This document shows, in pieces, positions 3 to 30,456 of a stretch of 64,000 bases of DNA. Source of the DNA: Methanobacteriota archaeon (lineage in GTDB: Archaea > Thermoplasmatota > E2 > DHVEG-1); assembly GCA_017885605.1 (NCBI GenBank), contig JAFNFT010000071.1:85519-149518 (forward strand), written 5' to 3'. Both the position numbers and the translations under genes were made by a program. A model generated the notes under the pieces. It saw only the letters and a program-made list of their open reading frames with translations, ran no database searches and was not told the DNA's origin. Positions within the stretch are counted from its first letter, which is position 1; the number at the start of each line of letters is the position of its first letter.

Positions 3-830
3 ACGCTGTACCCTTTCTCCTTTACAGAATGCCTTCTCTTACACAACATCCAACCAAAAAACCCCGTTCTTCTCACTAATGAAAGAGCACAACTGAAAAA
101 AGAATTCAATACCTATCTTGAAAAAGGTGGTTTCCCTGAATATAGACTTTACAACAATAATCAGATGCTTAAAGACCTGTACGAGAACATCCTCTATCGA
201 GACGTCATTGCGAGATACCATATCGCAAATGAAAAAACACTCAAAGAGCTCTCCTTTTATTTGTTTTCAAACTATGGAAAAGAAATCAGTTACAATCAAC
301 TGAAAAACCTTCTGAAAACAGGTTCCGCAAACACGATAAAAAATTATATTGAATACCTTGAAAACGCCTATCTTGTATTTTCCGTTCCAAAGTACGATCC
401 CTCTGTTAAAAAACAAATCTATTCTAAAAAGAAAATATATGCTATTGATACGGGACTCATCAATTGTATCTCCTTTCAATTTTCAAAAAATATGGGAAGA
501 ATCCTCGAAAACACGGTGTTCCTTGAATTAAAAAGAAAAAACAAGGATATCTACTATTACAAAAATAAATACGAATGCGATTTTGTCATTACGGACAATC
601 GCACGATAACACAAGCAATACAAGTTACTCAAGAAGTAAACGATACAAATAAAGAAAGAGAAACAAAAGGACTCTTTGAAGTGTTAAAAAAGTTTAACCT
701 ACCATGTGGATTGATTCTCACCTACGATCAAGAAGAAGAAATGACGTATGAAAAGAAAAAAATTTTCATACAACCGGTATGGAAATGGCTGCTTGAAAAA
801 GAGCCACAAGAGATGAAAGCCCATATCTAA
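3..830 (+). CDS. AAA+ ATPase family protein, C-terminal part (DUF4143-like); 5-prime truncated by window edge
   Basis: Open frame runs from nt 3 with no stop, so the listed M at 165 is internal. The C-terminal region looks like the archaeal DUF4143-containing ATPase family. There is no Walker A in the visible part, consistent with the N-terminus lying upstream of the window. Confidence 0.45.
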   Translation, partial: TLYPFSFTECLLLHNIQPKNPVLLTNERAQLKKEFNTYLEKGGFPEYRLYNNNQMLKDLYENILYRDVIARYHIANEKTLKELSFYLFSNYGKEISYNQLKNLLKTGSANTIKNYIEYLENAYLVFSVPKYDPSVKKQIYSKKKIYAIDTGLINCISFQFSKNMGRILENTVFLELKRKNKDIYYYKNKYECDFVITDNRTITQAIQVTQEVNDTNKERETKGLFEVLKKFNLPCGLILTYDQEEEMTYEKKKIFIQPVWKWLLEKEPQEMKAHI

Positions 831-1281
831 GCGACAACGAACTCTGCCGTATAGAGGCTTCTTTTCCAGGGGTGGATGAATCTTATTGCTTCATGTGTAA
901 TCAGCATAGAAGTCTTTGCTATCCTCTTTTCGATTGAGAAAAAAAAAGATAAAATGTACCACGTGTTTGTTGGAAAGAATGAAACAATGTTTTGTCTTCT
1001 TTTTGTTATGTTAATGTCTTTATTAGTGCTCATTTAGTGTTTCATCATCCGTGACGCTTGATAGGAGATGATTTTGGCGATAGAATTCAGAGGGAGAACA
1101 AAAAGAATGAGAAGGAATGCCGTAGCATAAACTATTATTGCGAGCGCTGGGTATTTTGTTCCGAGTTGAAAGTAGGTTCTTATCAAGATTGGAAATCGTT
1201 CGTTTTTTAGAATGGCTATACTCGATTTCTTCCGCAGATATTATATACCTAAAAAATTATTCACCTGTGGCAATTACGATA

Positions 1282-1299
1282 GTAATTGTTAACAATTAC
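1282..1299. promoter_or_regulatory. Perfect 18-bp palindrome gtaattgttaacaattac (overlapped by a caattac-N4-gtaattg inverted repeat at 1271-1289) ~55 bp upstream of the histidine kinase start
   Basis: Read directly; its own reverse complement. Lies in the 520-bp intergenic region before the 1354 gene. Candidate operator. Confidence 0.35.
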
Positions 1300-1353
1300 G
1301 TATTTACCTTACTTGGATGGGATGCTATACGAACTATAAATTAGCGACTCTAA

Positions 1354-3321
1354 TTGGCGGAGAATTTATCACTAAGATGTTTTGGATGGGGATATTTAAT
1401 GCAGAATGTTACTGACCTCGAGCAGCAGACAGAACGAACCGTTCAGGATGCTCGTGAATACGCTGGAAGCATTGTAGAGACGCTCCGAGAGCCTTTGATA
1501 GTGCTTGATGCTGACTTAAAAGTAATCTCAGCTAATCGTTCCTTTTACCAGACCTTTAAAACGAAACCCGAGGAGACTGAGGGGAAATTGGTCTACGACA
1601 TAGGTAATCAGCAATGGAATATTCCAAAGCTCCGAGAGCTTTTGGAGGAGATTTTACCCAAGAATACTTCTTTCGACAACTTTGAGGTTGAGCATGATTT
1701 TCCTCATCTTGGTAAACGAATAATGCTCTTGAATGCTCGATTGGTACCCCAGCCGCCAGCAAAACCCCGAATAATGCTTCTTGCTATTGAGGATATCACA
1801 GAACGCAAGCAGGTTGAACAAATAGCCAACGATGCTCGTGAATACGCTGAAAGCATTGTAGAGACGCTCCGAGAGCCTTTGATAGTGCTTGATGCTGACT
1901 TAAAAGTAATCTCAGCTAATCGTACTTTTTACCAGACCTTTAAAACGAAACCCGAGGAGACTGAGGGGAAATTGGTCTACGATATAGGTAACCAGCAATG
2001 GAATATTCCAAAGCTCCGAGAGCTTTTGGAGGAGATTTTACCCAAGAATACTTCTTTCGACAACTTTGAGGTTGAGCATGATTTTCCTCATCTTGGTAAA
2101 CGAATAATGCTCTTGAATGCTCGATTGTTACCCCAGCCGCCAGCAAAACCCCGAATAATGCTTCTTGCTATTGAGGATATCACAGAGCGTAAATGGGCGG
2201 AGGCGCTGAGGACTTCGGAGATCCGGTATCGTCGGCTCTTTGAGTCGGCCAAAGACGGAATTATAATCCTCGATGCTGAGACCGGGATGATTGTAGACGC
2301 GAATCCGTTCTTAATTGAGATGTTGGGTTACTCAAAAGAACAGTTCCTGGGAAAGTCAATCTGGGAAATGGGGCTTCTCAAGGGTATCGTCACCAACAAA
2401 GACAAATTCATGGAATTGCAACGACAGGAATATGTCCGCTACGAGGATTTGCCGCTGAAAACCGCCGATGGGCGCCGTATCGAGGTGGAGTTCGTCAGTA
2501 ACGTCTATGTAGTGGACCACCAGAAGGTAATCCAGTGCAACATCCGGGACATCACCGAACGTAAGCAGATGGAACATAAACTTAATGAAGCGTATCAAAA
2601 AATCAAAACACATACCAAGGAACTTGAGATGATCAACGAAAATCTGGACAGTTTTGCATATTCTGTCTCTCATGATCTTCGCACACCACTTCGGGCTATA
2701 AGTGGCTTCGCCCAAGTGTTAAAAGATACACACGGCGATAAAATCGACGAGGAGATGCGACATTATCTAAACAGAATTAGTGAAGGCGCTCAAAAAATGG
2801 GCCAATTAATCGATGATCTCCTCGGTTTCTCAAGGGCTACCCGGAGCGAGATAAAATATAAGACGATAAATGTTGAAAATATCGTTAATGATCTCGTAAA
2901 GGCATATCGTGATGTCGAACCGGATAGGGACATTGAATTTATTGTGAATCCATTAGGGGAAGTTGAAGCAGATAAAGAAATGCTAAAGGTTGTTTTTTCT
3001 AATCTTCTGCAAAATGCAGTTAAATTCACTATCGATCGGAAAAAGGCTCGTATTGAGATTGGAAGCGAGCAGAAAGAGGATCATATTCAATTTTATGTTA
3101 AAGATAACGGTATAGGTTTTGATATGAAATATAAAGATAAATTGTTCGTTGCCTTCCAGCGGATCCAAACAGATCAAAGGTTCACGGGTACTGGAATAGG
3201 TCTTACAACCGTGAAAAGGATAGTAACCAAACATGGCGGAAATATATGGGCCAATGGAGAGGTTGATAAAGGAGCAGAATTCTATTTTACTCTGCCTTCC
3301 AAGACGCATGTAAAAGATTGA
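1354..3321 (+). CDS. Cytoplasmic sensor histidine kinase with two tandem-duplicated PAS-like modules, a third PAS, HisKA and HATPase_c
   Basis: H-box VSHDLRTPLRAISGFAQVL and G-box region GTGIGLTTVKRIV...HGGNIWANGEVDKGAEFYFTLP. Three DITERK PAS linkers. No TM segment. Alternative start ATG at 1399. Confidence 0.9.
   Translation: MAENLSLRCFGWGYLMQNVTDLEQQTERTVQDAREYAGSIVETLREPLIVLDADLKVISANRSFYQTFKTKPEETEGKLVYDIGNQQWNIPKLRELLEEILPKNTSFDNFEVEHDFPHLGKRIMLLNARLVPQPPAKPRIMLLAIEDITERKQVEQIANDAREYAESIVETLREPLIVLDADLKVISANRTFYQTFKTKPEETEGKLVYDIGNQQWNIPKLRELLEEILPKNTSFDNFEVEHDFPHLGKRIMLLNARLLPQPPAKPRIMLLAIEDITERKWAEALRTSEIRYRRLFESAKDGIIILDAETGMIVDANPFLIEMLGYSKEQFLGKSIWEMGLLKGIVTNKDKFMELQRQEYVRYEDLPLKTADGRRIEVEFVSNVYVVDHQKVIQCNIRDITERKQMEHKLNEAYQKIKTHTKELEMINENLDSFAYSVSHDLRTPLRAISGFAQVLKDTHGDKIDEEMRHYLNRISEGAQKMGQLIDDLLGFSRATRSEIKYKTINVENIVNDLVKAYRDVEPDRDIEFIVNPLGEVEADKEMLKVVFSNLLQNAVKFTIDRKKARIEIGSEQKEDHIQFYVKDNGIGFDMKYKDKLFVAFQRIQTDQRFTGTGIGLTTVKRIVTKHGGNIWANGEVDKGAEFYFTLPSKTHVKD
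1447..2190 (+). repeat. Near-perfect tandem duplication, 384-bp unit x ~1.9, in frame, duplicating one 128-aa PAS-like module
   Basis: Copy 1 starts at 1447 (gatgctcgtgaatacgctggaagc) and copy 2 at 1831 (gatgctcgtgaatacgctgaaagc). I count only about six substitutions by eye over ~360 bp. The antisense ORFs 1556-1762 and 1940-2146 are near-identical shadows of it. Confidence 0.9.
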
Positions 3322-3351
3322 AAAATGATGTAAAAAAGGTTGTAATAAAGT

Positions 3352-3795
3352 GTGGTAAAAATGGACAAAGAAATAGAAATATTACTGGTAGAAGATAATG
3401 CTACTGATGAAGAATTAGCAACAATCGCATTAAAAAAACACAATATAAAAAATAAACTAAAAATAGCGAGAGATGGCGTAGAGGCCCTGGAATATCTTTT
3501 TGGCTCTGTTGATAGTGAAACGCTTAAATGTTTTGGTCCATTGGTGATTCTTCTTGATCTCAAGTTACCCCGGATAAATGGACTTGAGGTGTTAAGAAGA
3601 ATAAAGTCGCATCCAGAAGCAAAAAAAATACCTGTTGTAATATTGACATCATCCAGTGAAGAGAAAGATATATTGGAATCTTATCAACTCGGTGCAAACA
3701 GCTATATTCGTAAACCTGTGGATTTTAACCAATTTGAAGAAGCGATAAATCAGATTGGTTTGTATTGGTTGGTGCTGAATAAGCAATCTTCGTAG
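3352..3795 (+). CDS. Single-domain response regulator (CheY-like receiver)
   Basis: Matches the receiver-domain D-D-K pattern: LLVEDNATDEEL ... VILLDLKLPRINGLEV ... ILTSS...IRKPV. Probable true start is ATG at 3361. Directly downstream of the histidine kinase. Confidence 0.85.
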   Translation: MVKMDKEIEILLVEDNATDEELATIALKKHNIKNKLKIARDGVEALEYLFGSVDSETLKCFGPLVILLDLKLPRINGLEVLRRIKSHPEAKKIPVVILTSSSEEKDILESYQLGANSYIRKPVDFNQFEEAINQIGLYWLVLNKQSS

Positions 3796-3965
3796 GTACA
3801 AATCTATGAAAAATCGATTCCAAGAGCTGCTGAACTCTTCGATAAAGAAGTTGCTGGGGACGAAGTGCATTGCAAAATGCAGGGCAATGAAAAATGTCTA
3901 TTTAGAATCATGGAGCAAAAAGAATCGGAGGAAAAAACAAGAGAAAGAATCAAAAAGATGTTGAA

Positions 3966-4535
3966 ATGAAAACAGAACAAATAGAGAAGATAAAAAATGC
4001 ATTCAACGATTTACCAGAACACTGGCTATTACTATTCTTAATTAACGCCGAAGATTATCTGGAGAAAAATATAGCAATCCTAAACGAAGTATTAAAACAA
4101 GAAGACGTTGTTGGTGTTTATGTCACCTTAAACCGACCTTATTCAGTGTTAATAAAAATTTTAGAGAAAAACAACATCAATACAGACAAATTATTCTTCA
4201 TAGACTGTATAACAAAAACATTAGGACTGGAAAGAGAAGAAAAGAAATGTTTATTTTTAGAAAATCCACAGAATTTGACAAATATTGCAATAGCAATAGA
4301 TGAAATCATGAGTGCGATACCAGCAAAGAATAAATCGCTGTTTGTTGACCCTATGAGCACATTGTTGATTTATAACAGGGTTGAAACTGTTTCAAAGTTT
4401 CTACATGTTCTCACAGGAAAGATACGGGTTTTGAATTTAAACGGGGTTCTACTTTCTGCAGAGAAAGAACTTGATCCTGAATTCGCAGATCAATTGGAGC
4501 AATTTGTTGACAAAACAGTAGATTTAAGCAAATAA
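3966..4535 (+). CDS. DUF835-like protein (paralog 1 of 4 free-standing copies)
   Basis: C-terminal SLFVDPMSTLLIYNRVETVSKFLHVLTGKIRVLNLNGVLLS...EKELDPEF matches my recollection of the DUF835 consensus (…vlLDglEYLllhNgFe.vlkFlh.l.d.....n..lli.idp.al.e.e...L). FIDCIT is a Walker-B-like strand. No Walker A. Confidence 0.5.
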   Translation: MKTEQIEKIKNAFNDLPEHWLLLFLINAEDYLEKNIAILNEVLKQEDVVGVYVTLNRPYSVLIKILEKNNINTDKLFFIDCITKTLGLEREEKKCLFLENPQNLTNIAIAIDEIMSAIPAKNKSLFVDPMSTLLIYNRVETVSKFLHVLTGKIRVLNLNGVLLSAEKELDPEFADQLEQFVDKTVDLSK

Positions 4536-4586
4536 AATATGAATAAGAGAAAGATGCAAAAAAATTATTGTTGATGGTGTTGTAAG

Positions 4587-5141
4587 GTGCAGGAAGAAAT
4601 TGTAACTATTGATAAAAAAATGATTGAACTTAAAAATTATGAAAGTGTTTTAATAATTGAGAATGTGAAATCCTTACGGGCAACAGTAAATGAAATTTTA
4701 AAAACTCTTCAAGATAAACCTATTATTTACCTTAATTTAACTACTACATATAATTCATTAGTATCAAATTTAAAAAAGGATGGGCTAAAGATAGATAATA
4801 TTCTATTTATTGACTGCATTACACAGTTAGCTGGAGGTACTGTCAGTGATCAAGAGAATGTTTTATTTATTAAAGAGCCAAATGATTTAACCAGTTTAGG
4901 AATCGCGATCTCTCAATTTTTTGAAAACATACTTGGTGAGAAATGGCTTGTTTTATATGGTTTTAGTATTTTTAAAATTTACAATAAAGAAGATATTGTT
5001 TTAAGGTTCATTCAATCTATTTTTGAAAATGCCTCAATGAATAATGCAAAAATTGTTATTTTATCGACGCAAGTAAAGAATGATAGTCTAATTAAAAAAA
5101 TGGCTCATTTTTTTGAAAAAGTTGTTATGGAAATTGAGTAA
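4587..5141 (+). CDS. DUF835-like protein (paralog 2)
   Basis: Same length class and motifs as 3966 (IYLNLTTTYNSL..., ILFIDCITQLAG, LVLYGFSIF..., KIVILS). Preceded by an SD-like gtaaggtg. More divergent than the others. Confidence 0.4.
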   Translation: MQEEIVTIDKKMIELKNYESVLIIENVKSLRATVNEILKTLQDKPIIYLNLTTTYNSLVSNLKKDGLKIDNILFIDCITQLAGGTVSDQENVLFIKEPNDLTSLGIAISQFFENILGEKWLVLYGFSIFKIYNKEDIVLRFIQSIFENASMNNAKIVILSTQVKNDSLIKKMAHFFEKVVMEIE

Positions 5142-5143
5142 AA

Positions 5144-6337
5144 ATGACGCAAGAAAAGAGTGAACAAAATATTGAGCGCTTGGAATTACGGAATAAGGAG
5201 AAAGCAGAATTACTACACAAGAAGCTAGATGAAAAACAAGCAAAACAGCAAGCAAAGCAGAAAGAGCGGGACGCAAAAAGACTAGCAAAAGAACATGAAG
5301 AGAAGTTACGATTAGAGCGATTAGAATTACGCATGAATGAGAAAGCAGAATTACTACACAAGAAGCTGGATGAAAAACAAGCAAGATGGGAAGCGAAGGA
5401 GAGGGGGCGGGAGGAGGAAAGACGCGCAAAGGCGGAACTGAAATCGAAGCAGCGCATACTTGCCTTAAAAGAACTTGAATGGAGGACAAAGGAAAAAGAA
5501 GAACGTATACAAAAAAAGATTGAAGAAAAAAAAGCAAAACAGGAAGAAAAAGAAAAACAACATCGTCTCAAAGAACGTGAAGAGAAATCACGGTTAAAAC
5601 AGGTAGAAATACAAGAGGAAAAAGAGAAACAGAAAAAATTGGAAGAGAAACTTGCAAAACGAGACGCAAAGGAAAAAGAACATGAAGCAATAAGACGTGA
5701 AAAAGAAGAGGAAAGAAGAAAGCAGCAAATTCTTTCTATGAAAGAAATGGAAATAAAAGAAAACGAAAAGGAAGAACAAAAACAGAAACATGTTAAGGAA
5801 AAAAGAGAAAGACTACATTTAAGTGAACTTGATTTCGGAAAAGCAAAAGATGATGGGGCTATAGAAGAACGTAAAAAAGCGGAAAAAATAAAAAATACGA
5901 TGTCTTTAGTAAGAATTGCCGCAGAAGAAAAAGAACTCCGTAAAACCAAAGTTTTTGAACGAAAGATGAAAAAAGAGATGAAAAAAAATGAAAAAGAAGA
6001 ACAAAAATTCAAAATGAAGGAAGAGATGAATGCGAGGAAAAAAATGGCTGTACATATACAAGAAGAAATCATTAAGGGAAAAATCAGTGGTCAAAAAGAA
6101 AGGAGTGATGCATTCGTTGCATTTGATGGTATTGATGAAGAAACCGCGATTTATCTCTTCGAGAATGGATATAACACAGTAGAAAAATTGCGACAGACAA
6201 CGGTTAAAGATCTTATGAAAATTGGTTTAAGGAAAAAAATTGCCCAAAGGATAGTTGCTGAATGTGAAGAATTTGTTGAATGGGACGTGTATGACGCTGA
6301 TGAATATACTACGAGAAAATCCGATACACTACTCTGA
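5144..6337 (+). CDS. Lys/Glu-rich coiled-coil protein with a C-terminal helix-hairpin-helix (RadA/Rad51 N-terminal-like) domain
   Basis: About 300 aa of KEKxELxxKK heptad-like charged repeats, including an internal near-repeat ERLELRNKEKAELLHKKLDEKQA at aa 12 and aa 58 (nt ~5180 and ~5318). C-terminal GIDEETAIYLFENGYNTVEKLRQTTVKDLMKIGLRKKIAQRIV resembles a HhH pair. Its start is 3 nt after the 4587 gene's stop. Confidence 0.55.
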   Translation: MTQEKSEQNIERLELRNKEKAELLHKKLDEKQAKQQAKQKERDAKRLAKEHEEKLRLERLELRMNEKAELLHKKLDEKQARWEAKERGREEERRAKAELKSKQRILALKELEWRTKEKEERIQKKIEEKKAKQEEKEKQHRLKEREEKSRLKQVEIQEEKEKQKKLEEKLAKRDAKEKEHEAIRREKEEERRKQQILSMKEMEIKENEKEEQKQKHVKEKRERLHLSELDFGKAKDDGAIEERKKAEKIKNTMSLVRIAAEEKELRKTKVFERKMKKEMKKNEKEEQKFKMKEEMNARKKMAVHIQEEIIKGKISGQKERSDAFVAFDGIDEETAIYLFENGYNTVEKLRQTTVKDLMKIGLRKKIAQRIVAECEEFVEWDVYDADEYTTRKSDTLL

Positions 6338-6409
6338 ACCCATAGAGGTTTCACCCGATATAAAAAGAGGTATTTGTAAAGTAAAATTTATATGCGATCA
6401 AACTATTCG

Positions 6410-6440
6410 TAATTTATATGTAATTTATATGTAATGTGTA
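6410..6440. promoter_or_regulatory. Direct repeat cgtaatttatatgtaatttatatgtaatgtg (unit tatatgtaattta x2) ~140 bp upstream of the KaiC-histidine kinase gene; TATA-like
   Basis: Read directly. AT-rich tandem motif in the 237-bp intergenic region. Confidence 0.25.
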
Positions 6441-6574
6441 TTGTGAGCGGGTAAGATGGGATGCAAAAAAACAGTTTCAATTAAGATTAGATTAACAAGA
6501 ATGTTATATATCACTTTATTTGCAACTATAATTCCGTTAATTTCTTTCTTTAAAAAACAAATTGCTTTAGATTA

Positions 6575-9500
6575 TTGGTGAAGGAGATGCAAAACAAAAA
6601 AAATCTCAATCAATTTTCCCAACAGCATCAGAGTGTTGTTCAAGAAGTTGAACAAATATTACAGGAAAAAAAATACGTCATACCACCTGAAAAACTACTA
6701 TCGCTTGATAATAATTTCCCATCTGCATTCAATGTTTCTTTTACGGGTATAAAAGAGTTTGATCAACTTCTTGATGGCGGATTTACTAAGGGTTCAATTA
6801 TCTTGCTTGCCGGATCATCAGGAAGCGGCAAAACTATCTTTTCCTTCCAATGGCTTTTTGAAGGAATTAAAAACAATGAAAATGGAATCTATATCACTCT
6901 TACAGAACCGCTTTTCAAAACCTTAGAAAATCTTGAAAAACTAAGTTTTTACAATAAAGAAGCTATAGAAAATGAAAAATTGAGAATCGTTGATCTGCGG
7001 AAGATATATGAAAAGGAAGGTTTTGACCAGCAAAAAATCCTCGATTTTATTGAAAACGAGGTCAAACGAACAAATGCAAAACGACTATGCATTGATTCGA
7101 TTACCGCTATCGCGTATCAGCTTGATGATAGGGCCAAGATTAGAGCTTTTATATTTGCTCTAGGTACGACACTTGCAACACTCGGTTGCACAACTGTTTT
7201 AACCAGTGAAGTTTCTGAAATGAATAAATACTCTAAGTACGAAGTCGAGGAATTTATATCTGATGCAATTTTACGATTTGATCAAATTAAAGAAAAAGAC
7301 GAACCACAAAGAATAATACAGATAATCAAAGTGAGAGGGAGAAACCATAGGTCAGATGACATTTATTTCAAAATTACAAAGGATGGCATCACCGTTTTTC
7401 CTAAACTCAGGATTCCGCTTGAACATTTTTCTACGACAGAACGGATCTCGATGGGCATTTCTACGCTGGATGACATGTTAGGCGGAGGTATTTTTGTTGG
7501 TTCTTCTACACTCATAACTGGTTCGCCTGGAACCGGAAAATCTACGTTGGGTTTAAGTTTCCTTGCTGAGGGATTGAAAAATGGGGAGATGTGCCTGTAT
7601 GTTGGATTCGAAGAAAGTAAGAAACAAGTATTAAGAAACGCCAAAAATTTTGGATGGGATTTCGAGAAGTCCGAAAGAAATGGTCTTCTTGTCATGCGAT
7701 GTATTTATCCGAACGAAAAGCATCTTGAAGAACATCTAGCAGATATAAGAAAAATAGTGGAAGAAAAAAAAATTAAAAGATGTGTTGTTGACCCTCTCTC
7801 TGCCATTTCGAGTGCGTTCTCACCGGATGCATTTATAAGTTTTTCAAAACGACTTAATGGATATTTGAAAACTCGTGAGGTGACTCCTTTATTTACATCA
7901 ACCACAAACTCGCTCATAGGCAATACAAAAGATGTAGATTCGCATATTTCTACGATATCAGATAATATTATCTTGTTGCGTTATGTTGAAATGCAAGGTG
8001 ATGTACAGTTTGTAATAAACATTATCAAAATGAGAGGGAGTGAGCATAGCAAAAATCTAAGAATGTACAACATAACAGATAAGGGCTTAGTCGTCGGTAA
8101 AAGTCTCGAAGGTTATGAAGGTGTTACAACTGGTGTCAGTAAAAAAATTGCTGAACTCGAGAAAGAAGGTTTGGAACTTAAGGAAGTTATCAAGCAGAAA
8201 GAAATGGCGGAAAAGGTTCTGCGAGAGAGCGAGGAGAAATTTAGATTATTGTTTAATGACTCTCCTTTAGGTATTGCACTGGTAGATCCAGAAGGAATCA
8301 TTAAAGAAGTAAACAGCAGCTTACTTCAGCTGTTATCAATACGAAAAGAAGAATTTATCGGTAAAAACTTTGTTCAATTAATCTCAGTTTATGGTTTAGA
8401 TGTCCAAGAGCAAACCTCAGATTTCAAAAACAGAATTGCCGGAAAACCATCAAAAAGTGAAATAACATTTTTATCTAAAGACAACAAGAAAGCGACGATG
8501 ACGGTACAGAGTTCGATTATTAAAAGTAACGATGTAATAATTGGTGTTCTCTTCATTTTAGAAGACATCACCGAGCGTAAGCGGGTGGAGGGTATGCTAA
8601 GTGAGACGAATCAATACCTCGAAAACCTATTCAACTATGCAAATGCTCCTATCATCGTCTGGGATGCACAATTCGCAATCACCCGTTTCAATCATGCCTT
8701 CGAATCGTTGACCGGCCGGAGCGTGAAAGATGTTATCGGAAAAACTCTTGAAATTCTCTTTCCCCCAGACCTGGTGGAAAGTTCAATGGAACTAATTCGA
8801 AAAACGCGGGAAGGGAAACAATGGGAGGTGGTCGAGATTGATGTTCTGCATCTCGATGGATCAAGGAGGACCGTCCTCTGGAACTCAGCCAACCTTTTCG
8901 CCCCAGACAGTAAGACTCTCATCGCCACAATTGCGCAAGGTCAAGATATCACCAAACGCAAGCGAGCACTGGACGAATTGAAGGTAGCTAATGAAAAACT
9001 TAATCAAATAAAATCAGATTTTTTCGAAGTGACAACTCGCGAAATAAGATCGCCGTTAACTACAATAAAAGGATATATGGAAATGTTGTCAAATCGAACC
9101 TTTGGTGAAATAAATGATGAGCAAAAAAAATATCTTGATATAATGTTACGGAATACAAATCAGCTTGACAACCTTGTATCAGATCTTGTGGGCATTTCAA
9201 GCATTGAATCAGGGGATATGACTTTTACTTTGAAAAAAACGAGTATTAGTAAGATGGTGAATGAAGCAGTTGAAAAAATACAGTCATCTGCAGATGTAAA
9301 AAACATTGCAGTCAATGTAGAAATAGAGGATCAAATACCTGATTTAATCGTTGACCAAGATCGGATAAAACAAGTCCTTATAGATATACTCGGGTACACA
9401 ATAAAATTCTCACCAGATAAAACTACGGTTAATATGCGCGCAAAAAAACAAGAAACCGATGTTTTATTCGAGATTCAAGACCAAGGATTGAATATACCAA

Positions 9501-9769
9501 AGGATAAACAGAAAAAGATTTTTAAGGCGTTTTACCGAGCTGAAGAAGGTAAAAGTAAAGAATACTTAGGAGGCGGTATTAGACTTGCACTATCACGAGG
9601 TATTATCACCATTCATGGCGGCAAGATGTGGGTAGAAAGCGAGGATGAAAAGGGAAGTACATTTAGATTTACACTGCCAATAAAACCAGTTGATAATATT
9701 CAAACAAGATATAAAGAATCTGACATATTCGAATCAAAAAAAGATGATGAAAACATTGAAATTAATTAA
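6575..9769 (+). CDS. Fusion protein: two KaiC/RecA-like ATPase domains + coiled coil + 2 PAS + HisKA + HATPase_c (KaiC-histidine kinase)
   Basis: Walker A LLAGSSGSGKTIF (domain 1) and LITGSPGTGKSTLG (domain 2), with KaiC-like FDQLLDGGFTKGS and LDDMLGGGIFVGS leaders. EDITERK PAS linkers. H-box TTREIRSPLTTIKGYMEML. G2 region GGGIRLALSRGIITIHGGKMWVESEDEKGSTFRFTLP. Listed start is GTG; ATG at 6587 is more likely. Confidence 0.85.
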   Translation: MVKEMQNKKNLNQFSQQHQSVVQEVEQILQEKKYVIPPEKLLSLDNNFPSAFNVSFTGIKEFDQLLDGGFTKGSIILLAGSSGSGKTIFSFQWLFEGIKNNENGIYITLTEPLFKTLENLEKLSFYNKEAIENEKLRIVDLRKIYEKEGFDQQKILDFIENEVKRTNAKRLCIDSITAIAYQLDDRAKIRAFIFALGTTLATLGCTTVLTSEVSEMNKYSKYEVEEFISDAILRFDQIKEKDEPQRIIQIIKVRGRNHRSDDIYFKITKDGITVFPKLRIPLEHFSTTERISMGISTLDDMLGGGIFVGSSTLITGSPGTGKSTLGLSFLAEGLKNGEMCLYVGFEESKKQVLRNAKNFGWDFEKSERNGLLVMRCIYPNEKHLEEHLADIRKIVEEKKIKRCVVDPLSAISSAFSPDAFISFSKRLNGYLKTREVTPLFTSTTNSLIGNTKDVDSHISTISDNIILLRYVEMQGDVQFVINIIKMRGSEHSKNLRMYNITDKGLVVGKSLEGYEGVTTGVSKKIAELEKEGLELKEVIKQKEMAEKVLRESEEKFRLLFNDSPLGIALVDPEGIIKEVNSSLLQLLSIRKEEFIGKNFVQLISVYGLDVQEQTSDFKNRIAGKPSKSEITFLSKDNKKATMTVQSSIIKSNDVIIGVLFILEDITERKRVEGMLSETNQYLENLFNYANAPIIVWDAQFAITRFNHAFESLTGRSVKDVIGKTLEILFPPDLVESSMELIRKTREGKQWEVVEIDVLHLDGSRRTVLWNSANLFAPDSKTLIATIAQGQDITKRKRALDELKVANEKLNQIKSDFFEVTTREIRSPLTTIKGYMEMLSNRTFGEINDEQKKYLDIMLRNTNQLDNLVSDLVGISSIESGDMTFTLKKTSISKMVNEAVEKIQSSADVKNIAVNVEIEDQIPDLIVDQDRIKQVLIDILGYTIKFSPDKTTVNMRAKKQETDVLFEIQDQGLNIPKDKQKKIFKAFYRAEEGKSKEYLGGGIRLALSRGIITIHGGKMWVESEDEKGSTFRFTLPIKPVDNIQTRYKESDIFESKKDDENIEIN

Positions 9770-9792
9770 AAAAAATTCCAATAAGTGATACC

Positions 9793-10380
9793 ATGTTAAA
9801 AGATGAAACAAAAAAATCTATTGAACAAGCAATACAAATGGACAAACATGGCGTCATAATTATGATAGAACTTCCAATAAATGCTTATTTTGAAATGAAT
9901 TCTTCCACCATTAAAATATTGACAAACCATGGTTTTCAAGGGATATACATTAGCTTTCAGAGACCGTTTAATAACATATCTTCCTTTTTTGAATCTGAGG
10001 GAATAGACACTAATACACTATTATTTATAGATGCTGCAACAGCCCTTTCCGGTGAAAAACAACATGAAGATGCTCGTTGTATACATGTCTCCCAAGAACT
10101 CGATATTGATGAACTGGTAAAAGCCATCTATCTTTCTCTGCCAAAGCTAAAAAGCCAAAAAAAGTTTATTTTTATCGATTCATTAACTACAATATCTCTT
10201 TACAAACCATTATCTCAAATAATGAGATTTTCAGAATTCCTGATGAGGACAGTACGTAAAGAAAACGAGGAAAATGTTATACTCATTTTTAACGTGGCAA
10301 AAGATCTCGCCCAAAAAAAATTTATCAGAGAGGTAGCCTTCCATGTGGACCAAGTAATAAGTGTGGATAATAATGAATGA
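9793..10380 (+). CDS. DUF835-like protein (paralog 3)
   Basis: GIYISFQRPFNNI...LLFIDAATALSG...KFIFIDSLTTISLYKPLSQIMRFSEFLMRTV...VILIFNV: same pattern as 3966. Starts 24 nt after the KaiC-histidine kinase stop. Confidence 0.45.
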   Translation: MLKDETKKSIEQAIQMDKHGVIIMIELPINAYFEMNSSTIKILTNHGFQGIYISFQRPFNNISSFFESEGIDTNTLLFIDAATALSGEKQHEDARCIHVSQELDIDELVKAIYLSLPKLKSQKKFIFIDSLTTISLYKPLSQIMRFSEFLMRTVRKENEENVILIFNVAKDLAQKKFIREVAFHVDQVISVDNNE

Positions 10381-10930
10381 TCTAGAAAAAATTTCTCAAG
10401 AATTAAACAATCTGCCAAAAGGCTGGATTGTAATGCTGGAAACTTCTCCAGAAAAAATGTTAGAGGTTTCTTTGTCAACGATAAAATTTTTATCTGATGA
10501 AAAAAACTACATTGGAATTATCGTATCAGCAAGCAGACCTCAAAAAAATTTGATACAACTCTACCAACAAAAAAAAATCGATATTAAAAAAATTCTCATT
10601 CTCGACTGTATCTCAAAAAGCCAGAGTTTGGACCTGGAGGAAGCGAGCAATGTTATATATCTTGAATCAGTATCTTCTCTTACAAATATTTCACTTGCAA
10701 TAACAGCGAGTATTCAACGAATACCGGGAGATAAATTTGTTTTTATTGACTCTATCAACAGCATGCTTATTCATAACAAACCTGAAGTTTTTGCTCAATT
10801 CATTCATGGGATTTTAACTAAGCTGAGAATTGGCGGGATAAACGGTTTACTTATTTCTCTAGAACATGAAACGAACAAAGAGATACATGCAGAAATTGCA
10901 CAACTGTGCGATCGGATTGTGAAAATATAA
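10361..10930 (+). CDS. DUF835-like protein (paralog 4)
   Basis: KFVFIDSINSMLIHNKPEVFAQFIHGILTKLRIGGINGLLISLEHETNKEIHAEIAQL is the strongest DUF835-type match of the four. Overlaps the upstream paralog by 20 nt and the downstream kaiC by 25 nt. Confidence 0.5.
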   Translation: MWIIMNDLEKISQELNNLPKGWIVMLETSPEKMLEVSLSTIKFLSDEKNYIGIIVSASRPQKNLIQLYQQKKIDIKKILILDCISKSQSLDLEEASNVIYLESVSSLTNISLAITASIQRIPGDKFVFIDSINSMLIHNKPEVFAQFIHGILTKLRIGGINGLLISLEHETNKEIHAEIAQLCDRIVKI

Positions 10931-11853
10931 TGGATGAAAAAAAGAGTAAACAAAGTAATATCTTTGACATGGCTAAAATCAAAGCAGAGATTGAGAATAA
11001 GCTAAAGGGTACTGATGACAAAGGTTATTCCACGGGAGGAACTTTAGAACAAAAAACGCAACAGTTGCATGAAACAAAAAATGAAGCTAAAACGGGAAAA
11101 AAATTTGTTTTAACAGGCGTTTCCGGATTTGATGAACTATTTGAAAATGGCATACCAAAAGGTTCCAATATTCTCGTTGCTGGAGGTGCAGGTTCAGGAA
11201 AAACAATTTTTTGTCTACAAACACTGTGGTACCATATCTTATGTGGGGAAAAATGTTTTTACATGAGTTTTGAAGAATCTGAAAAAAGATTAATGGAACA
11301 TATGGAGGATTTTGGTTGGAATCCAGAAAAACTTCTCGCATCAGGTAACTTTAAAATCAAGAGGTATCTACCGAGCGATATTCATTATGTATCTGAAAAA
11401 GGTAACGATAATGCAATGTTTGCTAAAGAAGAGGACAGTCAACTTTTACAGTTAGAGCCAGTAACTTTGGAAGAAGGATTTAATCCTGATTTTGTTGTCA
11501 TTGATTCACTTACGGCAATTGCCTCGGCATTTATGGGAAAAGAAGGTTCGTACAGGTTTTATGCTGAGCGACTCTTCAGGTTTTTTGAAAATATGGGGAG
11601 TACAAATTATTTTATAACAGAGACCGGACAGATGCCAGAAACTTTTTCACAGACCGGTGTTGAGGAGTTCTTAGCTGATGGGGTGATTGTTTTGTATAAT
11701 ATTAAACGAGAAAATATGCGGGAACGCGCTATAGAGGTTTTGAAAATGCGTGGTACAAAACATCAAGAGAGAATAGTTGCAATGAAAATTTCCGAAAAAG
11801 GTATGGTTGTGTATCCAAAACAGGAGATTTTTGGTGAGATTCACACTAAATAA
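10906..11853 (+). CDS. Single-domain KaiC-like (RecA superfamily) ATPase
   Basis: Walker A VAGGAGSGKTIFCLQ preceded by the KaiC-like GVSGFDELFENGIPKGSNIL. Walker B DFVVIDSLTAIAS. Confidence 0.8.
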   Translation: MRSDCENIMDEKKSKQSNIFDMAKIKAEIENKLKGTDDKGYSTGGTLEQKTQQLHETKNEAKTGKKFVLTGVSGFDELFENGIPKGSNILVAGGAGSGKTIFCLQTLWYHILCGEKCFYMSFEESEKRLMEHMEDFGWNPEKLLASGNFKIKRYLPSDIHYVSEKGNDNAMFAKEEDSQLLQLEPVTLEEGFNPDFVVIDSLTAIASAFMGKEGSYRFYAERLFRFFENMGSTNYFITETGQMPETFSQTGVEEFLADGVIVLYNIKRENMRERAIEVLKMRGTKHQERIVAMKISEKGMVVYPKQEIFGEIHTK

Positions 11854-11946: not shown

Positions 11947-12777
11947 TCAAGAAGCTATCCACGCATCTATTTCTATGATGTTTAGAGCGAGATTAACGGT
12001 GGTGATTCCTAAAAATTCTATAGTTATTTCGCCAGTAGTATCCGTCACTGAAAAATTGGCTCCATAGGTAAGGTTTGCTGATTGTAATGTACTTTTAAAC
12101 GCTTGATGCCAGGCATTTGGATAATTTGTGGTAATTGTAATGTTTTTTATATTGTTCATCAAAGAAGTTTTATTACTAACGAATTCTGTCCGTATCGGAT
12201 AGGTTCCATATCCGCCTGCGGATGTTCTTCCACCAACTCCTGTGATGTTTACAATATCGAGGGTTAGGTTAACAACATTTACGTTTATTATTGCGGAAAA
12301 AGGTTTTATGGACATTACATTTCCTTCAGATTGATTCAATATTACAGATCCAGCCTCATAAATGTAAGATTGATCAAGATAGTATACATTTTTCGATGAA
12401 TATTTTATGATTCCAAGTGAATACGAAGCGGAGTTTGAGATATTTGTGATTGTCACTGTACAATTATTTGATAAAATCAGAAGAGACCCAAACGCTCTAC
12501 TCGCTGAGAAATAAGGTATTTCTTTATTTCCAAGAGTAATAGATGTTGACATTGGTGTTTTTTGCCCAGTTGCAGCTTGTATGTCTATCGCAGATTTTAA
12601 CTGAGAAAACTGATCTGCTACGTCACCCATATGCTCTGCTTCTATCGACCTCATCCATTTTGGCACATACGTGGTTTGTATCAATGAAATAACAATGACA
12701 ATGAGTCCTACAAGTAATATTGCAGTAATAATGCCTGCCACTGCATTATCCGAACACCATCTCTGGTTCACTCTCAT
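11947..12777 (-). CDS. Pilin-like protein with class III signal peptide / N-terminal hydrophobic helix (putative minor pilin), rich in N-x-S/T sequons
   Basis: N-terminus DNAVAGIITAILLVGLIVIVISLIQ, about ten N-x-S/T sequons. Last gene of the minus-strand pilus operon. Confidence 0.45.
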   Translation of the reverse strand: MRVNQRWCSDNAVAGIITAILLVGLIVIVISLIQTTYVPKWMRSIEAEHMGDVADQFSQLKSAIDIQAATGQKTPMSTSITLGNKEIPYFSASRAFGSLLILSNNCTVTITNISNSASYSLGIIKYSSKNVYYLDQSYIYEAGSVILNQSEGNVMSIKPFSAIINVNVVNLTLDIVNITGVGGRTSAGGYGTYPIRTEFVSNKTSLMNNIKNITITTNYPNAWHQAFKSTLQSANLTYGANFSVTDTTGEITIEFLGITTVNLALNIIEIDAWIAS

Positions 12778-12788
12778 CTCAATTCTCC

Positions 12789-14540: not shown

Positions 14541-15013
14541 AATAAAAATTTGAAAACAAAAAGTGAGATCACACCAAGAACAAAACTGTACCGAAGGCCT
14601 GAAGAAAGTTTACCATCCATCATGAACCCTCCGATCATACCTGCACCAATACCCTGTGTAAAAACAAATGAACTCAATGCGTATTTCAACGCCACGGGAT
14701 CCACTTTATTCATCATGACACCAGCCATTTCAACCGTGCTGCTCTGACTCTTGAAAAATGAGGCGAACAGCGTGTTATTAAGAATCATAATTATTCCGAG
14801 GAACACAAAAAAACTCATGATAATTACAACGGTATAGGTAGCCATTTCCGATTTTCTCTGCTCCTTAATATTATTAATTTGATTGATTTCTTTTGCCGCT
14901 GCTTTAAAAACCTTTGACGTCATCCCCCCCATTCTCAATCCTGTATTTATCGAAACAACTATTCTTTTGACAATAGGAGATCTCATCCGTTCAGCAAAAT
15001 TCTCAAACTTCAT
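13955..15013 (-). repeat. Segmental duplication copy A (pilin 5-prime ~590 bp + tadC 3-prime ~480 bp); copy B at ~16695-17745
   Basis: The pilin N-terminal ~95 codons are essentially identical between 14225-14520 and 16950-17245. The tadC 3-prime 477 bp (14537-15013) is ~90% identical to 17260-17740 by eye. Confidence 0.6.
14537..15013 (-). pseudogene. 5-prime-truncated duplicate of the tadC/flaJ-like gene (C-terminal 158 codons only); may be expressed as a small 3-4 TM protein
   Basis: MKFENFAERMRSPIVKRIVVSINTGLRMGG... aligns residue-for-residue with the last 158 aa of the 586-aa protein at 17260-19020 (KVFENFAERMRSAIIKRIVVSINTGLRMGG...). Confidence 0.5.
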
Positions 15014-15032
15014 TTTTTTTTATCTCGCCTCT

Positions 15033-22616: not shown

Positions 22617-22974
22617 GTTTCTCCGCGCAACAATAAAATCATACTGTCTTTATATAATATGATTTAAAAAAATATAGAGTGATATACTTTTTGTTCATTT
22701 TATATTTGCAATGAAATGAGTCTAACATAAATAAGGGATGTGAGAAATACTTAGATATTGTTAAACTCATATCATTGCTTATCCGTATGGGTTCAATCCA
22801 ATTGTTATTGCAACAATTAATACCATAGGTATAACAACAGAAATTCCTCTATTATCATCTTTCACAAGTTTTCTATGTGCTTTTATCCTCATCACCACCT
22901 ATCAAATTAAAATTACGATAAAATTACAGAAGCATTACATAATATAAATATTTTTTGGTAGGCAGTTGAAAAAT

Positions 22975-22998
22975 TCGTGAGAACTAAATAGTTCACGA
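22975..22998 (-). terminator. Imperfect inverted repeat cgtgagaacta-aa-tagttcacg followed on the minus strand by a T-run, just 3-prime of the histidine kinase at 23006
   Basis: Read directly. Archaeal intrinsic terminators are oligo-T tracts, sometimes with hairpins. Confidence 0.25.
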
Positions 22999-23005
22999 TT
23001 TCGTC

Positions 23006-24706: not shown

Positions 24707-24758
24707 ATTACCACCATATTCGTGAGTATTTTTTCTCTAAAGTATGAAGAATGGACTC

Positions 24759-29906: not shown

Positions 29907-30175
29907 AAAAAACCTCTCTAATATTTTAAAGGGTTTTCTCCTAAAATTGTAGCATCCACCTCAACGTCACAAAACAGCATCATTTCGTAACCCCTCATTT
30001 CCTTTTTCCCGCCACAATTAAATTACGCAAACATTACAATATAATACTTCTTTCTTATTTAACTTTAATGGACGAATCAAAAAAGTAAAAACAAAAAAAT
30101 CATCAGATGATCCTTATCTGATATGCAACAAAGTTGAATCAGGACGATATTTGGAGGAAGCAGCAATGTCTGGAC

Positions 30176-30232
30176 TGAATCATAAAACGATATTTTCAAT
30201 CAATCTCTTTCACCTTAGAGATGATTCGATAC
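30176..30232 (+). repeat. Copy A of a ~57-bp imperfect direct repeat flanking the MEDS-histidine kinase gene
   Basis: atcataaaacgatattttcaatcaatctctttcaccttagagatgattcgatac versus 31936-31995 atcataaaaacgatattttcaaaccatccttttcaccctagagatggtatctggtatc. The atctct/agagat inverted repeat is internal. About 45 of 55 positions match. Confidence 0.45.
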
Positions 30233-30456
30233 GAAGTTAAAAAAAAATTAACTATTGGGCAAAAATAAAATATATTTACTCGTTCTCGAAGAATGGGTTT
30301 ATTTTCAATATGTAAGATAATAGAGTTATTGTAGCGTGGGAATGAAATTAATGTAACAATTTGTAATAAATTTTTATTAAAAGTAAAAAACGTTGCAAAA
30401 CGAAACATTTAAGATTTGCTACAATATTGTAGTTTTATATTTTTATAGAGAAAAAA

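Follow-up and report, generated by a model that had tools for sequence, protein, structure and literature searches.

What are the four small proteins that a block of signalling genes encodes in two tandem pairs in this window (the whole 64,000-nt stretch of DNA analyzed here), and which process does the block serve? A sequence-only reading had described the small proteins as DUF835-like partners of a KaiC/histidine kinase core. All nine open reading frames that it had placed on the plus strand lie where it put them, and its domain calls for the histidine kinase, receiver, helix-hairpin-helix (HhH) protein, KaiC fusion and single KaiC hold in Pfam (Table 1). The window as a whole is rich in signalling genes.

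Table 1. Features of the signalling block, the adjoining pilus locus and the membrane-anchored iKaiC region.
Feature	Position	Strand	Evidence or remark
HK1, cytoplasmic sensor histidine kinase	1354–3321	+	Pfam: three PAS, HisKA, HATPase_c
Stand-alone receiver (REC, CheY-like)	3352–3795	+	Response_reg E 2.7e-20; 30 nt after HK1
Vestige of KaiB-V4R gene, C-terminal half of V4R domain	3796–3969	+	V4R, sub-threshold match
S1a, iKaiC, DUF7504 type, pair 1 first member	3966–4535	+	
S1b, iKaiC, pair 1 second member	4587–5141	+	blastp to S1a 1e-16; DUF7090 E 2e-4
KE-rich coiled-coil protein with C-terminal HhH	5144–6337	+	HHH_5 E 1.4e-8 (Pfam)
KaiC(CI)-KaiC(CII)-PAS-PAS-HisKA*-HATPase_c* fusion	6575–9769	+	Pfam KaiC x2, 344.9 bits; NCBIfam
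S2a, iKaiC, pair 2 first member	9793–10380	+	KaiC PF06745, 28.0 bits
S2b, iKaiC, pair 2 second member	10373–10930	+	ATG start, GTG at 10361; KaiC 26.8 bits
KaiC1d, active-looking single-domain KaiC	10930–11853	+	ATG start, GTG at 10906; KaiC 182 bits
DUF7289 protein	11947–12777	−	Pfam
Pilin_N+DUF2341 protein	12789–14540	−	Pfam
Truncated T2SSF	14537–15013	−	Pfam
Pilin_N+DUF2341 protein	15033–17282	−	Pfam
T2SSF platform	17260–19020	−	Pfam
T2SSE ATPase	19017–21029	−	Pfam
MEDS-HK	30457–31848		
Receiver (REC)	32116–32505	−	
Membrane-anchored iKaiC	32499–33275	−	N-terminal hydrophobic segments, C-terminal iKaiC domain
RHH regulator	33272–33475	−	RHH_1 E 5.9e-7

Pfam HMM searches do not bear out the DUF835 label: Only S1a matches that model, at 19.9 bits against a cut-off of 33.1, and the other three give no DUF835 match. 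S1a exceeds the cut-off of DUF7504 (37.1 bits), which S2b also matches (E 2.8e-4); S2a and S2b both exceed the KaiC cut-off of 26.6 bits, and the closest Pfam match of S1b, DUF7090, is sub-threshold. The four are real paralogues by blastp (S1a–S2b 3e-32, S1a–S1b 1e-16, S1a–S2a 1.5e-15, S1b–S2a 4e-8). Profile alignment assigns the Walker B strand to SLFVDPMS/FIFIDSLT (D128 of S1a), so that of the two strands previously likened to Walker B, FIDSLT qualifies and FIDCIT does not; FFIDCIT (D80) is a different strand, and D80 is the only position invariant across the family. P-loop and arginine finger are both absent. In keeping with the proposal of inactivated RecA-fold paralogues, the small proteins, here termed iKaiC, are by sequence truncated KaiC folds unable to bind or hydrolyze ATP in the KaiC manner. 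At E ≤ 1e-3 the family counts 3,964 clusters, of which 2,538 remain at E ≤ 1e-10.

The dead RecA-fold paralogues could instead act in DNA repair or recombination, in the way of Rad51 paralogues, the Shu complex or archaeal RadA paralogues, and the HHH_5 domain in the block would suit mediators of that kind, with the HhH protein binding DNA and a tie to pilus-mediated DNA exchange that might follow. We regard this role as very improbable: The best profile matches of the iKaiC proteins are KaiC-type rather than RadA-type, their neighbors are PAS, histidine kinase, receiver and KaiC proteins and pilins, with no repair genes among them, and conservation of the module does not extend to the HhH gene.

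Comparison with related contigs revises the layout of the block. Instead of two operons repeating one architecture, it holds two different modules joined around one common KaiC gene; instead of a single 10-kb system, it is a mosaic from which a 5.8-kb segment (5172–10936) is missing in L011, L013, L014 and L015 and the HhH gene in L011 and L012. The recurring core consists of two distinct iKaiC proteins and one active single-domain KaiC. In relatives it occurs as form A (HK-REC-pair 1-KaiC) or form B (KaiC2-PAS-kinase-like fusion-pair 2-KaiC), with KaiC1d as the end common to both by synteny, and the block in the window is, on this gene-order evidence, a composite of A and B around a single KaiC. 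The HhH gene is a variable accessory gene: Its product varies in length (302 aa in L092, 254 aa in L094), and the gene starts with codons (MTQEKSEQN) that are matched at the N-terminus of the KaiC in L011. The tight packing of S2b and KaiC1d stands, whereas the 20- and 25-nt overlaps reported for them depend on GTG starts; in-frame ATGs at 10373 and 10930, those of the public gene calls on the identical contig (L001), leave overlaps of 8 nt with S2a (ATGAATGA) and 1 nt with S2b (TAATG).

The upstream genes of form A comprise an intact sensor kinase, a receiver and a gene remnant. HK1, whose start lies 15 codons further downstream in the public gene calls, keeps its phospho-acceptor His (H-box SVSHDLRTPL) and intact N, G1 and G2 boxes. 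Within it, positions 1447–2186 hold a tandem duplication of 384 nt at 98% identity. The vestige lies in frame behind the REC stop codon (TAG), and its TGA overlaps the S1a ATG. It matches V4R below the cut-off (E 6.9e-6, 26.5 bits against 31) and its alignment to the fusion protein P0180 falls at the end of the KaiB-V4R portion (E 2e-7); L094 and L015 have an intact KaiB/V4R gene of 223–231 aa at this position.

Across genomes, what stays constant beside the iKaiC pairs is the single-domain KaiC1d, not the histidine kinase. Of 80 genome loci, 44 have a Walker A-positive KaiC no more than 1.5 kb from iKaiC, and extending the distance to 5 kb adds none; in a separate set of 80 loci with KaiC1d orthologues, 38 carry an iKaiC within 2 kb and 16 carry two. 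Neighbors were detected by phmmer with window seeds, which makes these counts incomplete, and the loci are not phylogenetically independent. The earlier proposal of dedicated partners therefore stands for KaiC but not for the histidine kinase, since HK/REC neighbors are confined to four close relatives among the 80 genome loci. KaiC1d has intact Walker A (GGAGSGKT), SFEES, VVIDSLT and KMRGTKH motifs, and its orthologues (56–95%) follow a pair in L011–L015, L091, L092 and L094–L100. The two members of each pair are distinct proteins whose order and orthologues are kept across relatives, with position-specific orthologues down to 40–47% identity for pair 1 (S1a at the same position in L011–L015, L092 and L094; S1b at 40–92%) and 48–55% for pair 2 (S2a at 55–93% in L012 and L091–L093; S2b at 48–96%). 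Proteins naturally fused into one chain speak for physical association (iKaiC-iKaiC in P0189 and P0250, DUF835-DUF7504 in P0295), and the KaiB-V4R-iKaiC fusion P0180 connects the family with partners of KaiC. In Methanosarcinaceae, iKaiC copies stand alone with ribosomal genes as neighbors.

A type IV pilus locus (11947–21029), not mentioned in the sequence-only reading, converges on KaiC1d from 93 nt downstream. It adjoins the module in several lineages and gene orders, distant archaea included (L011, L091, L092, L093, L094–L100, L127, L130–L132 and L136). The link is kept in L091 though the fusion there is only 41% identical; in L093 the pilus genes sit between KaiC1d and the fusion operon; and in a second order (L127, L130–L132, L136) KaiC1-iKaiC-iKaiC is followed by convergent pilus genes. 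In Altiarchaeota, KaiC, iKaiC, T2SSE and T2SSF run in the same direction in a single cluster, spaced −4 to 43 nt apart (L006; also L016–L019). Counted over all 80 genome loci, 24 have T2SSE within 10 kb; among the 39 with full flanks, 17 do. In the window the pilus genes, convergent to the module, are not co-transcribed with it, and 8 of the 16 two-iKaiC loci have no pilus gene in view, most of these contigs being short.

On balance, and with slightly more confidence than doubt, we favor a KaiC-centered signalling module whose most likely output is the neighboring pilus machine, which, judging from sequence, it probably controls. The two dead paralogues would form a hetero-oligomer with KaiC1d. 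This could be a ring of mixed RecA-fold subunits, comparable to Elp4/5/6, or a KaiC hexamer capped by a heterodimer; lacking both P-loop and arginine finger, the dead paralogues would determine how many ATP sites are active and where they lie, and would provide docking surfaces. With ArlH as the model, this complex would act as a gate on the T2SSE ATPase and its T2SSF platform. HK1 would sense through its PAS domains and phosphorylate the receiver, and the double-domain KaiC with its PAS domains and His-less kinase-like module would serve as a second sensor; this fusion may scaffold the receiver, or be a non-histidine kinase where relatives keep ATP-binding motifs. Two-component input would be lineage-specific, with KaiB-V4R, dCache-HAMP-PAS or a small membrane protein as inputs in other relatives.

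The fusion bears on the original proposal of a self-contained KaiC-based sensory/timing device with the pilus locus as a mere neighbor, which we consider unlikely yet still deserving weight. Here the double-domain KaiC would autophosphorylate on its CII Ser/Thr pair, iKaiC pairs and, in relatives, KaiB-like proteins would bind it state-dependently, and the output would be carried by the kinase-like module, by the receiver or by DNA-binding proteins (HhH or RHH). The fusion passes the NCBIfam KaiC model PRK09302 (436 bits, cut-off 408), and its CII retains GFEES and DSHIST, the latter present in solved KaiC sequences. S1a orthologues occur together with KaiB-like genes or fusions (L015, L094, P0180), L015 has the complete KaiC2/KaiB-like/pair/KaiC1d set with no pilus gene within 9 kb downstream, and signalling genes are dense in the window. 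A sequence-level likeness to cyanobacterial KaiABC with SasA/CikA extends to the double-domain KaiC with its intact CII Glu-Glu and Ser-Thr motifs, KaiB-like proteins in relatives and a kinase-type module coupled to KaiC. Unlike there, however, this module is fused to KaiC, and the part formerly called a histidine kinase has Arg at the acceptor position (H-box TTREIRSPL, N-box YTIKF, G1 DQGLN), as do all fusion orthologues down to 41% identity except one with Gln; in the window's sublineage ATP-lid motifs are missing too, whereas some relatives keep ATP-binding motifs. CI has ITLTEP in place of FEE and so lacks the first catalytic Glu. KaiB persists only as the vestige, and neither KaiA nor an intact KaiB gene was found among the proteins scanned with Pfam (block, pilus locus and 30457–33475). 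The HhH gene is dispensable, and pilus adjacency survives rearrangements.

Modules of this type were earlier predicted from genomes; published predictions cover both KaiC hubs that include inactivated paralogues and the presence of KaiC genes in pilus loci. Galperin et al. 2018 (PMC5847659), citing Makarova et al. 2017, summarize inactivated KaiC domains (iKaiC: DUF835, MEDS) as archaeal signalling components, with KaiC paralogues clustered with PAS, HK, REC, MEDS and ATPase-dead homologues, a purely computational picture like ours; the window likewise has a MEDS-HK and a membrane-anchored iKaiC. Measured against that summary, the present proteins differ in being DUF7504-like, neither DUF835 nor MEDS by Pfam threshold, in forming ordered hetero-pairs with a dedicated single-domain KaiC, in a fused kinase module without acceptor His and in an apparently uncultured Thermoplasmatota host, although Makarova 2017 may already describe some of this. 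KaiC-family genes in or next to archaeal type IV pilus loci, and DUF2341 pilus proteins, were described by Makarova, Koonin & Albers 2016 (PMC4858521), where a second component for the KaiC-like ATPase was not evident in most cases; here a specific iKaiC pair is consistently present. The KaiC-like ArlH binds the archaellum ATPase ArlI according to phosphorylation state (bioRxiv 10.1101/2021.03.19.436134). KaiC1d was rejected as an ArlH orthologue (NCBIfam ArlH 54.6 bits, cut-off 215), and the filament genes here are Pilin_N/DUF2341 adhesin-like, not archaellins. To our knowledge, ArlH has no dead paralogue partners. Elongator Elp4/5/6 and Rad51 paralogue complexes (BCDX2) are heteromers of inactive RecA-fold paralogues, the assembly predicted here, but they share no sequence relation beyond the fold and serve unrelated biology (tRNA modification, DNA repair).

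DUF835 proteins typically combine a membrane segment with the domain. The fifth copy in the window is membrane-anchored beside an RHH regulator and a receiver, as previously noted, and its C-terminal domain is iKaiC; the genes run RHH, membrane iKaiC, REC with overlaps of 4 and 7 nt. More widely, a gene for a small multi-pass membrane protein (~100–140 aa) lies within 300 nt of iKaiC in 55 of 80 loci, always on the same strand and mostly 0–30 nt away; the family was gathered by jackhmmer from compositionally biased sequences, and only the strict adjacency argues for its reality. These observations would fit iKaiC proteins that are membrane-proximal adaptors, not ring subunits, tethering KaiC ATPases to the membrane or pilus platform much as archaellum ArlX or ArlCDE might. 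We think this improbable: The four small proteins of the block have neither a hydrophobic segment nor a membrane partner gene. Soluble tandem pairs would then be derived, a second iKaiC replacing the membrane partner, and the membrane-protein gene is indeed missing from 9 of 11 tandem-pair loci (L011–L015, L031, L035, L046, L080; L050 is a clear exception). The KaiC1d orthologue of L099 is directly preceded by genes for a 263-aa iKaiC and a REC.

The four small proteins S1a and S1b (pair 1) and S2a and S2b (pair 2) are paralogues of one another (S1a–S2b, E 3e-32; S1a–S1b, 1e-16; S1a–S2a, 1.5e-15; S1b–S2a, 4e-8). Their identities are only 21–31%, and the pairs are therefore old; S1a is nearest to S2b, not to S2a, which excludes pair 2 as a recent copy of pair 1. 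The sequence-only reading had called these proteins DUF835-like, a label that falls below threshold: S1a scored 19.9 bits (E 6.6e-4) against a PF05763 cut-off of 33.1, and the Pfam scan gave no PF05763 (DUF835) match for S1b, S2a, S2b or the membrane-anchored 32499 protein. DUF835 proteins typically carry N-terminal membrane segments followed by a C-terminal domain. The small proteins (184–195 aa, N terminus not hydrophobic) lack this layout, which is seen only in the 32499 protein. S1a matches DUF7504 (PF24336) at 37.1 bits, above the cut-off of 27, and most of its homologues bear the precomputed PF24336 label; S2b reaches 21.9 bits, under that cut-off, and S1b and S2a were without a PF24336 match in the same scan. 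S2a and S2b also match the KaiC profile PF06745 (28.0 and 26.8 bits, profile positions about 45–190 of 231), and S1b weakly matches DUF7090.

When the profile of 36 family members was compared with that of 17 active KaiC domains, the small proteins fell within the KaiC fold (probability 96.5%, E 8e-10), and the loss of their ATPase motifs could be located. The Walker A position (GGAGSGKT in KaiC) reads INAEDYLE, the catalytic FEES position reads LNRP, and Walker B (VVIDSLT) aligns with LFVDPMS, whose Asp is the only ATPase motif residue retained. Alignment with KaiC extends no further than residue 255 of 307, ahead of KMRGTKH, and this arginine-finger segment therefore has no counterpart in the family. 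FIDCIT, previously read as a Walker B-like strand, is a separate strand; its Asp (D80) is the sole invariant residue of the family. The AlphaFold model of S1a is confident (pLDDT 91.9, pTM 0.89), and the earlier guess of inactivated RecA-fold paralogues proved right. With KaiC/RecA-fold homology and disrupted ATPase motifs, the proteins belong to the class that Galperin et al. 2018 (PMC5847659) call inactivated KaiC (iKaiC), citing Makarova et al. 2017. A sequence-profile search of solved structures returned weak KaiC/FlaH matches only (E 0.0025–0.43) and no iKaiC-family member. A recombination-mediator role for these RecA-fold proteins is highly improbable.

All nine plus-strand ORFs that had been described here lie where they had been placed, and Pfam supports the domain calls for the five marked in the table. 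Within the second gene set, the proposed overlaps of 20 and 25 nt need GTG starts; they shrink to 8 nt and 1 nt if translation begins at the in-frame ATG codons 10373 and 10930, and gene calls on the identical public contig L001 adopt these ATG starts. Since this is archaeal DNA, promoters were sought as simple TATA-like and oligo-T motifs and not by sigma-70 scanning; the search showed only that the 249-nt spacer before the fusion gene is AT-rich (27% GC) and holds several TATA-like motifs.

Features of the window and examples of the small membrane protein gene in related loci
Feature	Coordinates	Strand	Content
HK1	1354–3321	+	three PAS, HisKA, HATPase_c (Pfam)
Receiver REC	3352–3795	+	receiver (Pfam)
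S1a	3966–4535	+	iKaiC, pair 1
S1b	4587–5141	+	iKaiC, pair 1
KE-rich HhH protein	5144–6337	+	HHH_5 domain at end (Pfam)
Fusion	6575–9769	+	two KaiC, two PAS, HisKA, HATPase_c (Pfam)
S2a	9793–10380	+	iKaiC, pair 2
S2b	10373–10930	+	iKaiC, pair 2
KaiC1d	10930–11853 (10906–11853 with the GTG start of the sequence-only reading)	+	one KaiC domain (Pfam)
Pilus locus genes	11947–21029	-	DUF7289, two large Pilin_N+DUF2341, truncated and full T2SSF, T2SSE ATPase
NosD/PKD surface protein	21312–22616	-	beyond pilus locus
HAMP histidine kinase	23006–24706	-	beyond pilus locus
1,715-aa histidine kinase	24759–29906	-	kinase core N-terminal, long PAS-rich remainder
MEDS-histidine kinase	30457–31848	+	beyond pilus locus
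32499 protein	32499–33275	-	membrane-anchored iKaiC
Small membrane protein, L006	3809–4093		about 50 more loci
Small membrane protein, L007	8480–8824
Small membrane protein, L009	8690–9013
Small membrane protein, L054	9646–9969

The block had been described as two operons of one architecture; synteny with the related contigs L011 and L091 resolves it instead into two different module types sharing one KaiC1d. The nearest relatives are four Thermoplasmatota MAGs (77–88% identity to S1a), and the source organism therefore probably lies outside Methanosarcinales, the order named for follow-up in the sequence-only reading. At the nucleotide level, window 2545–5171 runs straight into window 10937–12915 on L011, whose order is thus HK-REC-S1a-S1b-KaiC1d; the extra 5.8 kb of the window (5172–10936) holds the HhH gene, the fusion, S2a and S2b. 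Pair 1 is likewise followed directly by KaiC1d in L013, L014 and the distant L015 (S1a 47% identical). In L091, the second set—fusion (41% identical)-S2a-S2b-KaiC1d—stands alone, with position-specific orthologues of S2a, S2b and KaiC1d (55%, 48% and 56%), and L012 combines the fusion with pair 2 and lacks the HhH gene. These arrangements therefore define two module types with ordered orthologous pairs, both closed by a KaiC of one kind, and by gene order the window is a composite of both around one KaiC1d. The junction has left a mark: the HhH gene product begins with MTQEKSEQN, the N terminus of L011 KaiC1d, and about 21 nt of L011 match both window 5144–5171 and 10930–10957, bordering the extra segment.

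The input side of pair 1 also appears to have changed. In the 170-nt spacer between REC and S1a (window 3796–3969) lies the coding sequence for the C-terminal half of a V4R domain, in frame with REC past its TAG stop and ending in an ATGA overlap with S1a; it aligns to the end of the KaiB-V4R part of the related protein P0180 and seems to be what is left of a KaiB-V4R gene. In L094 and L015 this place is taken by an intact KaiB/V4R gene (223–231 aa), which suggests that the HK-REC input took over from an older KaiB-V4R gene. TAG ends 6 of 45 long window ORFs, so it is an ordinary stop here and pyrrolysine read-through into the remnant is rejected. Among the window proteins scanned (all from the first 36 kb), neither KaiA nor KaiB was matched beyond the V4R remnant. 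KaiB-like genes do occur in L015 and L094, and L015 has no pilus gene within 9 kb downstream; both points would suit a self-contained KaiC sensor or timer, a reading that we regard as possible but doubtful.

KaiC1d and the fusion differ in what they retain. KaiC1d matches PF06745 at 182 bits (cut-off 26.6), with Walker A, the Glu-Glu pair, Walker B and the arginine-finger segment all intact, and looks like an active ATPase. The fusion exceeds the NCBIfam PRK09302 cut-off (436 versus 408 bits) and falls below that of TIGR02655 (355.3 versus 546.25 bits). In its KaiC family, fused or unfused (including L015), the first KaiC domain (CI) has ITLTEP for FEE at residues about 80–115, so the first catalytic Glu is Thr; the second (CII) keeps GFEES and, in the fusion, DSHIST, a motif visible in solved KaiC sequences that we take to be the KaiC phosphorylation site. 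The H-box of the fusion is FFEVTTREIRSPL; the window's other four kinases have SHELRTPL-type boxes, with which TTREIRSPL aligns, lacking the phospho-acceptor His. Arg occupies the acceptor position in 14 of 14 close orthologues and in P0074 and P0075 (Gln in P0077). The window sublineage has further altered NAIKF to YTIKF, DxGxG to DQGLN and GGGIGL to GGGIRL; the more distant orthologues P0069–P0077 keep the N, G1 and G2 boxes. Judged by these motifs, the fusion would not work as a histidine kinase. The loss is conserved and matters for annotation: proteins of this kind carry the label of histidine kinase or circadian clock protein and probably work as neither. In HK1 and REC, the H-box His, the N/G1/G2 boxes and the receiver domain are all present, and phosphotransfer is predicted.

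A type IV pilus locus, overlooked in the sequence-only reading, begins 93 nt past KaiC1d on the opposite strand. Its assignment follows from a T2SSE ATPase (E 2.1e-29), a T2SSF platform protein (E 4.1e-28), class III signal-peptide pilins (Pilin_N, E 3.4e-11 and 6.5e-11) and DUF2341 (E 1e-20 or better), the last marking likely tip adhesins (Makarova et al. 2016, PMC4858521). KaiC1d is distinct from the archaellum component ArlH/FlaH, scoring 54.6 bits against an NCBIfam equivalog cut-off of 215, and in contrast to archaellum loci its neighbours are Pilin_N/DUF2341 genes, with no archaellin or ArlF/G among those scanned. The same pilus neighbourhood recurs in L011, L091 and L092, and in L093 the pilus genes separate KaiC1d from the fusion operon. 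A metagenome scan for KaiC1d orthologues (80 loci, 52–95% identity) found an iKaiC gene within 2 kb in 38 and two in 16; pilus genes lay within 10 kb in 16 of the 80, including 8 of the 16 loci with two iKaiC genes. In L127, L130–L132 and L136 the genes run in a second order, KaiC1-iKaiC-iKaiC and then convergent pilin/DUF7289/T2SSF genes, and in the Altiarchaeota locus L006 KaiC, iKaiC, membrane protein, T2SSE and T2SSF genes are co-directional with gaps of -4 to 43 nt.

The family extends well beyond these relatives. Clustered at 50% identity, the matches of an exhaustive profile search number 3,964 at E ≤ 1e-3, falling to 2,538 at E ≤ 1e-10 and to 827 at E ≤ 1e-30; most are 175–200 aa long. 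Single-chain fusions join iKaiC to iKaiC (P0189, P0250), DUF835 to DUF7504 (P0295), KaiB-V4R to iKaiC (P0180), adenylate cyclase to iKaiC (P0268) and iKaiC to WD40 (P0214); in a single-sequence AlphaFold model of P0250 (pLDDT 41.9), the domain interface is not readable. A genome scan with a 13-sequence alignment subset gave 80 loci from Thermoplasmatota, DPANN lineages, Altiarchaeota, Methanosarcinaceae and Asgard archaea. Neighbours were counted by phmmer with single-sequence seeds from the window, and the related sequences are all metagenomic, many of them closely related to each other. On this basis, 44 of 80 loci have a Walker A-positive KaiC no more than 1.5 kb from iKaiC (none added at 1.5–5 kb), 24 of 80 have T2SSE within 10 kb (17 of the 39 having at least 5 kb on both sides) and 11 of 80 have an adjacent second iKaiC; HK or REC neighbours are confined to the four closest relatives.

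More than half of the genome loci (55 of 80) carry a small multi-pass membrane protein gene within 300 nt of iKaiC, always on the same strand and usually 0–30 nt away. The protein has about 100–140 aa and an FGF-like motif at its end; its gene lies downstream in DPANN/Altiarchaeota and upstream in Methanosarcinaceae, where iKaiC copies stand alone with it beside ribosomal genes. It is absent from the window and from 9 of the 11 tandem-pair loci. That iKaiC proteins serve as membrane-tethering adaptors is a reading we consider improbable.

A second component for KaiC-like ATPases is usually not evident, and KaiC genes in archaeal pilus loci have been noted before (Makarova et al. 2016, PMC4858521). 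We judge it somewhat probable, by analogy with the action of ArlH on ArlI in the archaellum (bioRxiv 10.1101/2021.03.19.436134), that two dead paralogues and KaiC1d assemble into a hetero-oligomer that acts on the pilus ATPase. Such a complex would dock on T2SSE, and signals would enter it from HK1-REC and the PAS-bearing double-domain KaiC. A more specific version seems unlikely: that two dead KaiC proteins plus KaiC1d form a hetero-hexameric ring (perhaps 2:2:2, Elp4/5/6-like) as a hitherto unrecognised regulatory subunit of non-archaellum type IV pilus motors, widespread from DPANN to Thermoplasmatota, with the His-less module a scaffold or a Ser/Thr kinase writing the ring state.

Archaea have many KaiC paralogues, which have been proposed to serve as their main signalling hubs; to our knowledge, almost none has a known partner or output. 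The locus and its relatives offer a concrete set—two dead paralogues, one active KaiC and an adjoining pilus ATPase. Were this set to assemble as proposed, it would explain the role of about 4,000 DUF7504-like protein clusters, the switching of archaeal adhesive pili, and the grafting of bacterial-type two-component parts onto an archaeal KaiC core. KaiC hubs, inactivated paralogues, and two-component and pilus links are published as predictions. As far as could be checked, four features are new: the triad in which an ordered pair is joined by its own KaiC, the return of this triad next to pilus loci in two gene orders, the partners of KaiB-V4R and membrane-protein type, and the conserved His-less kinase module.

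The operon seems to be a hot spot for gain and loss of KaiC cassettes. In the close relative L012, about 3 kb of further inserted sequence (314–3271) separates REC from S1a and carries a canonical double-domain KaiC of 513 aa with both Glu-Glu pairs intact. Within HK1, a 384-nt unit is present 1.9 times at 98% identity (window 1447–2186), a recent tandem duplication of a whole PAS domain; HK1 length on public contigs is 387–655 aa, some copies being cut by contig ends. The KE-rich part of the HhH gene repeats a 141-nt unit 1.8 times (window 5174–5430, 81% matches), and its products measure 254, 302 and 397 aa across relatives. In the pilus locus, window 13961–15007 and 16653–17700 both match L011 14073–15157, and therefore record a segmental duplication, which yielded the second Pilin_N+DUF2341 gene and the truncated T2SSF (14537–15013).

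To the left lie AAA_14/DUF4143-type ATPase genes (window 165–830), to which the related contig L002 (1432–6865) adds a ParE/MazE-like toxin-antitoxin pair, suggesting that the region upstream of HK1 is variable. PADLOC found only local P-loop matches, to mad8 and PDC-M43B, and a defence role is not supported. To the right, a dense signalling island (window 21312–31848) follows the pilus locus; it includes a MEDS domain, itself counted as an inactivated KaiC domain (PMC5847659).
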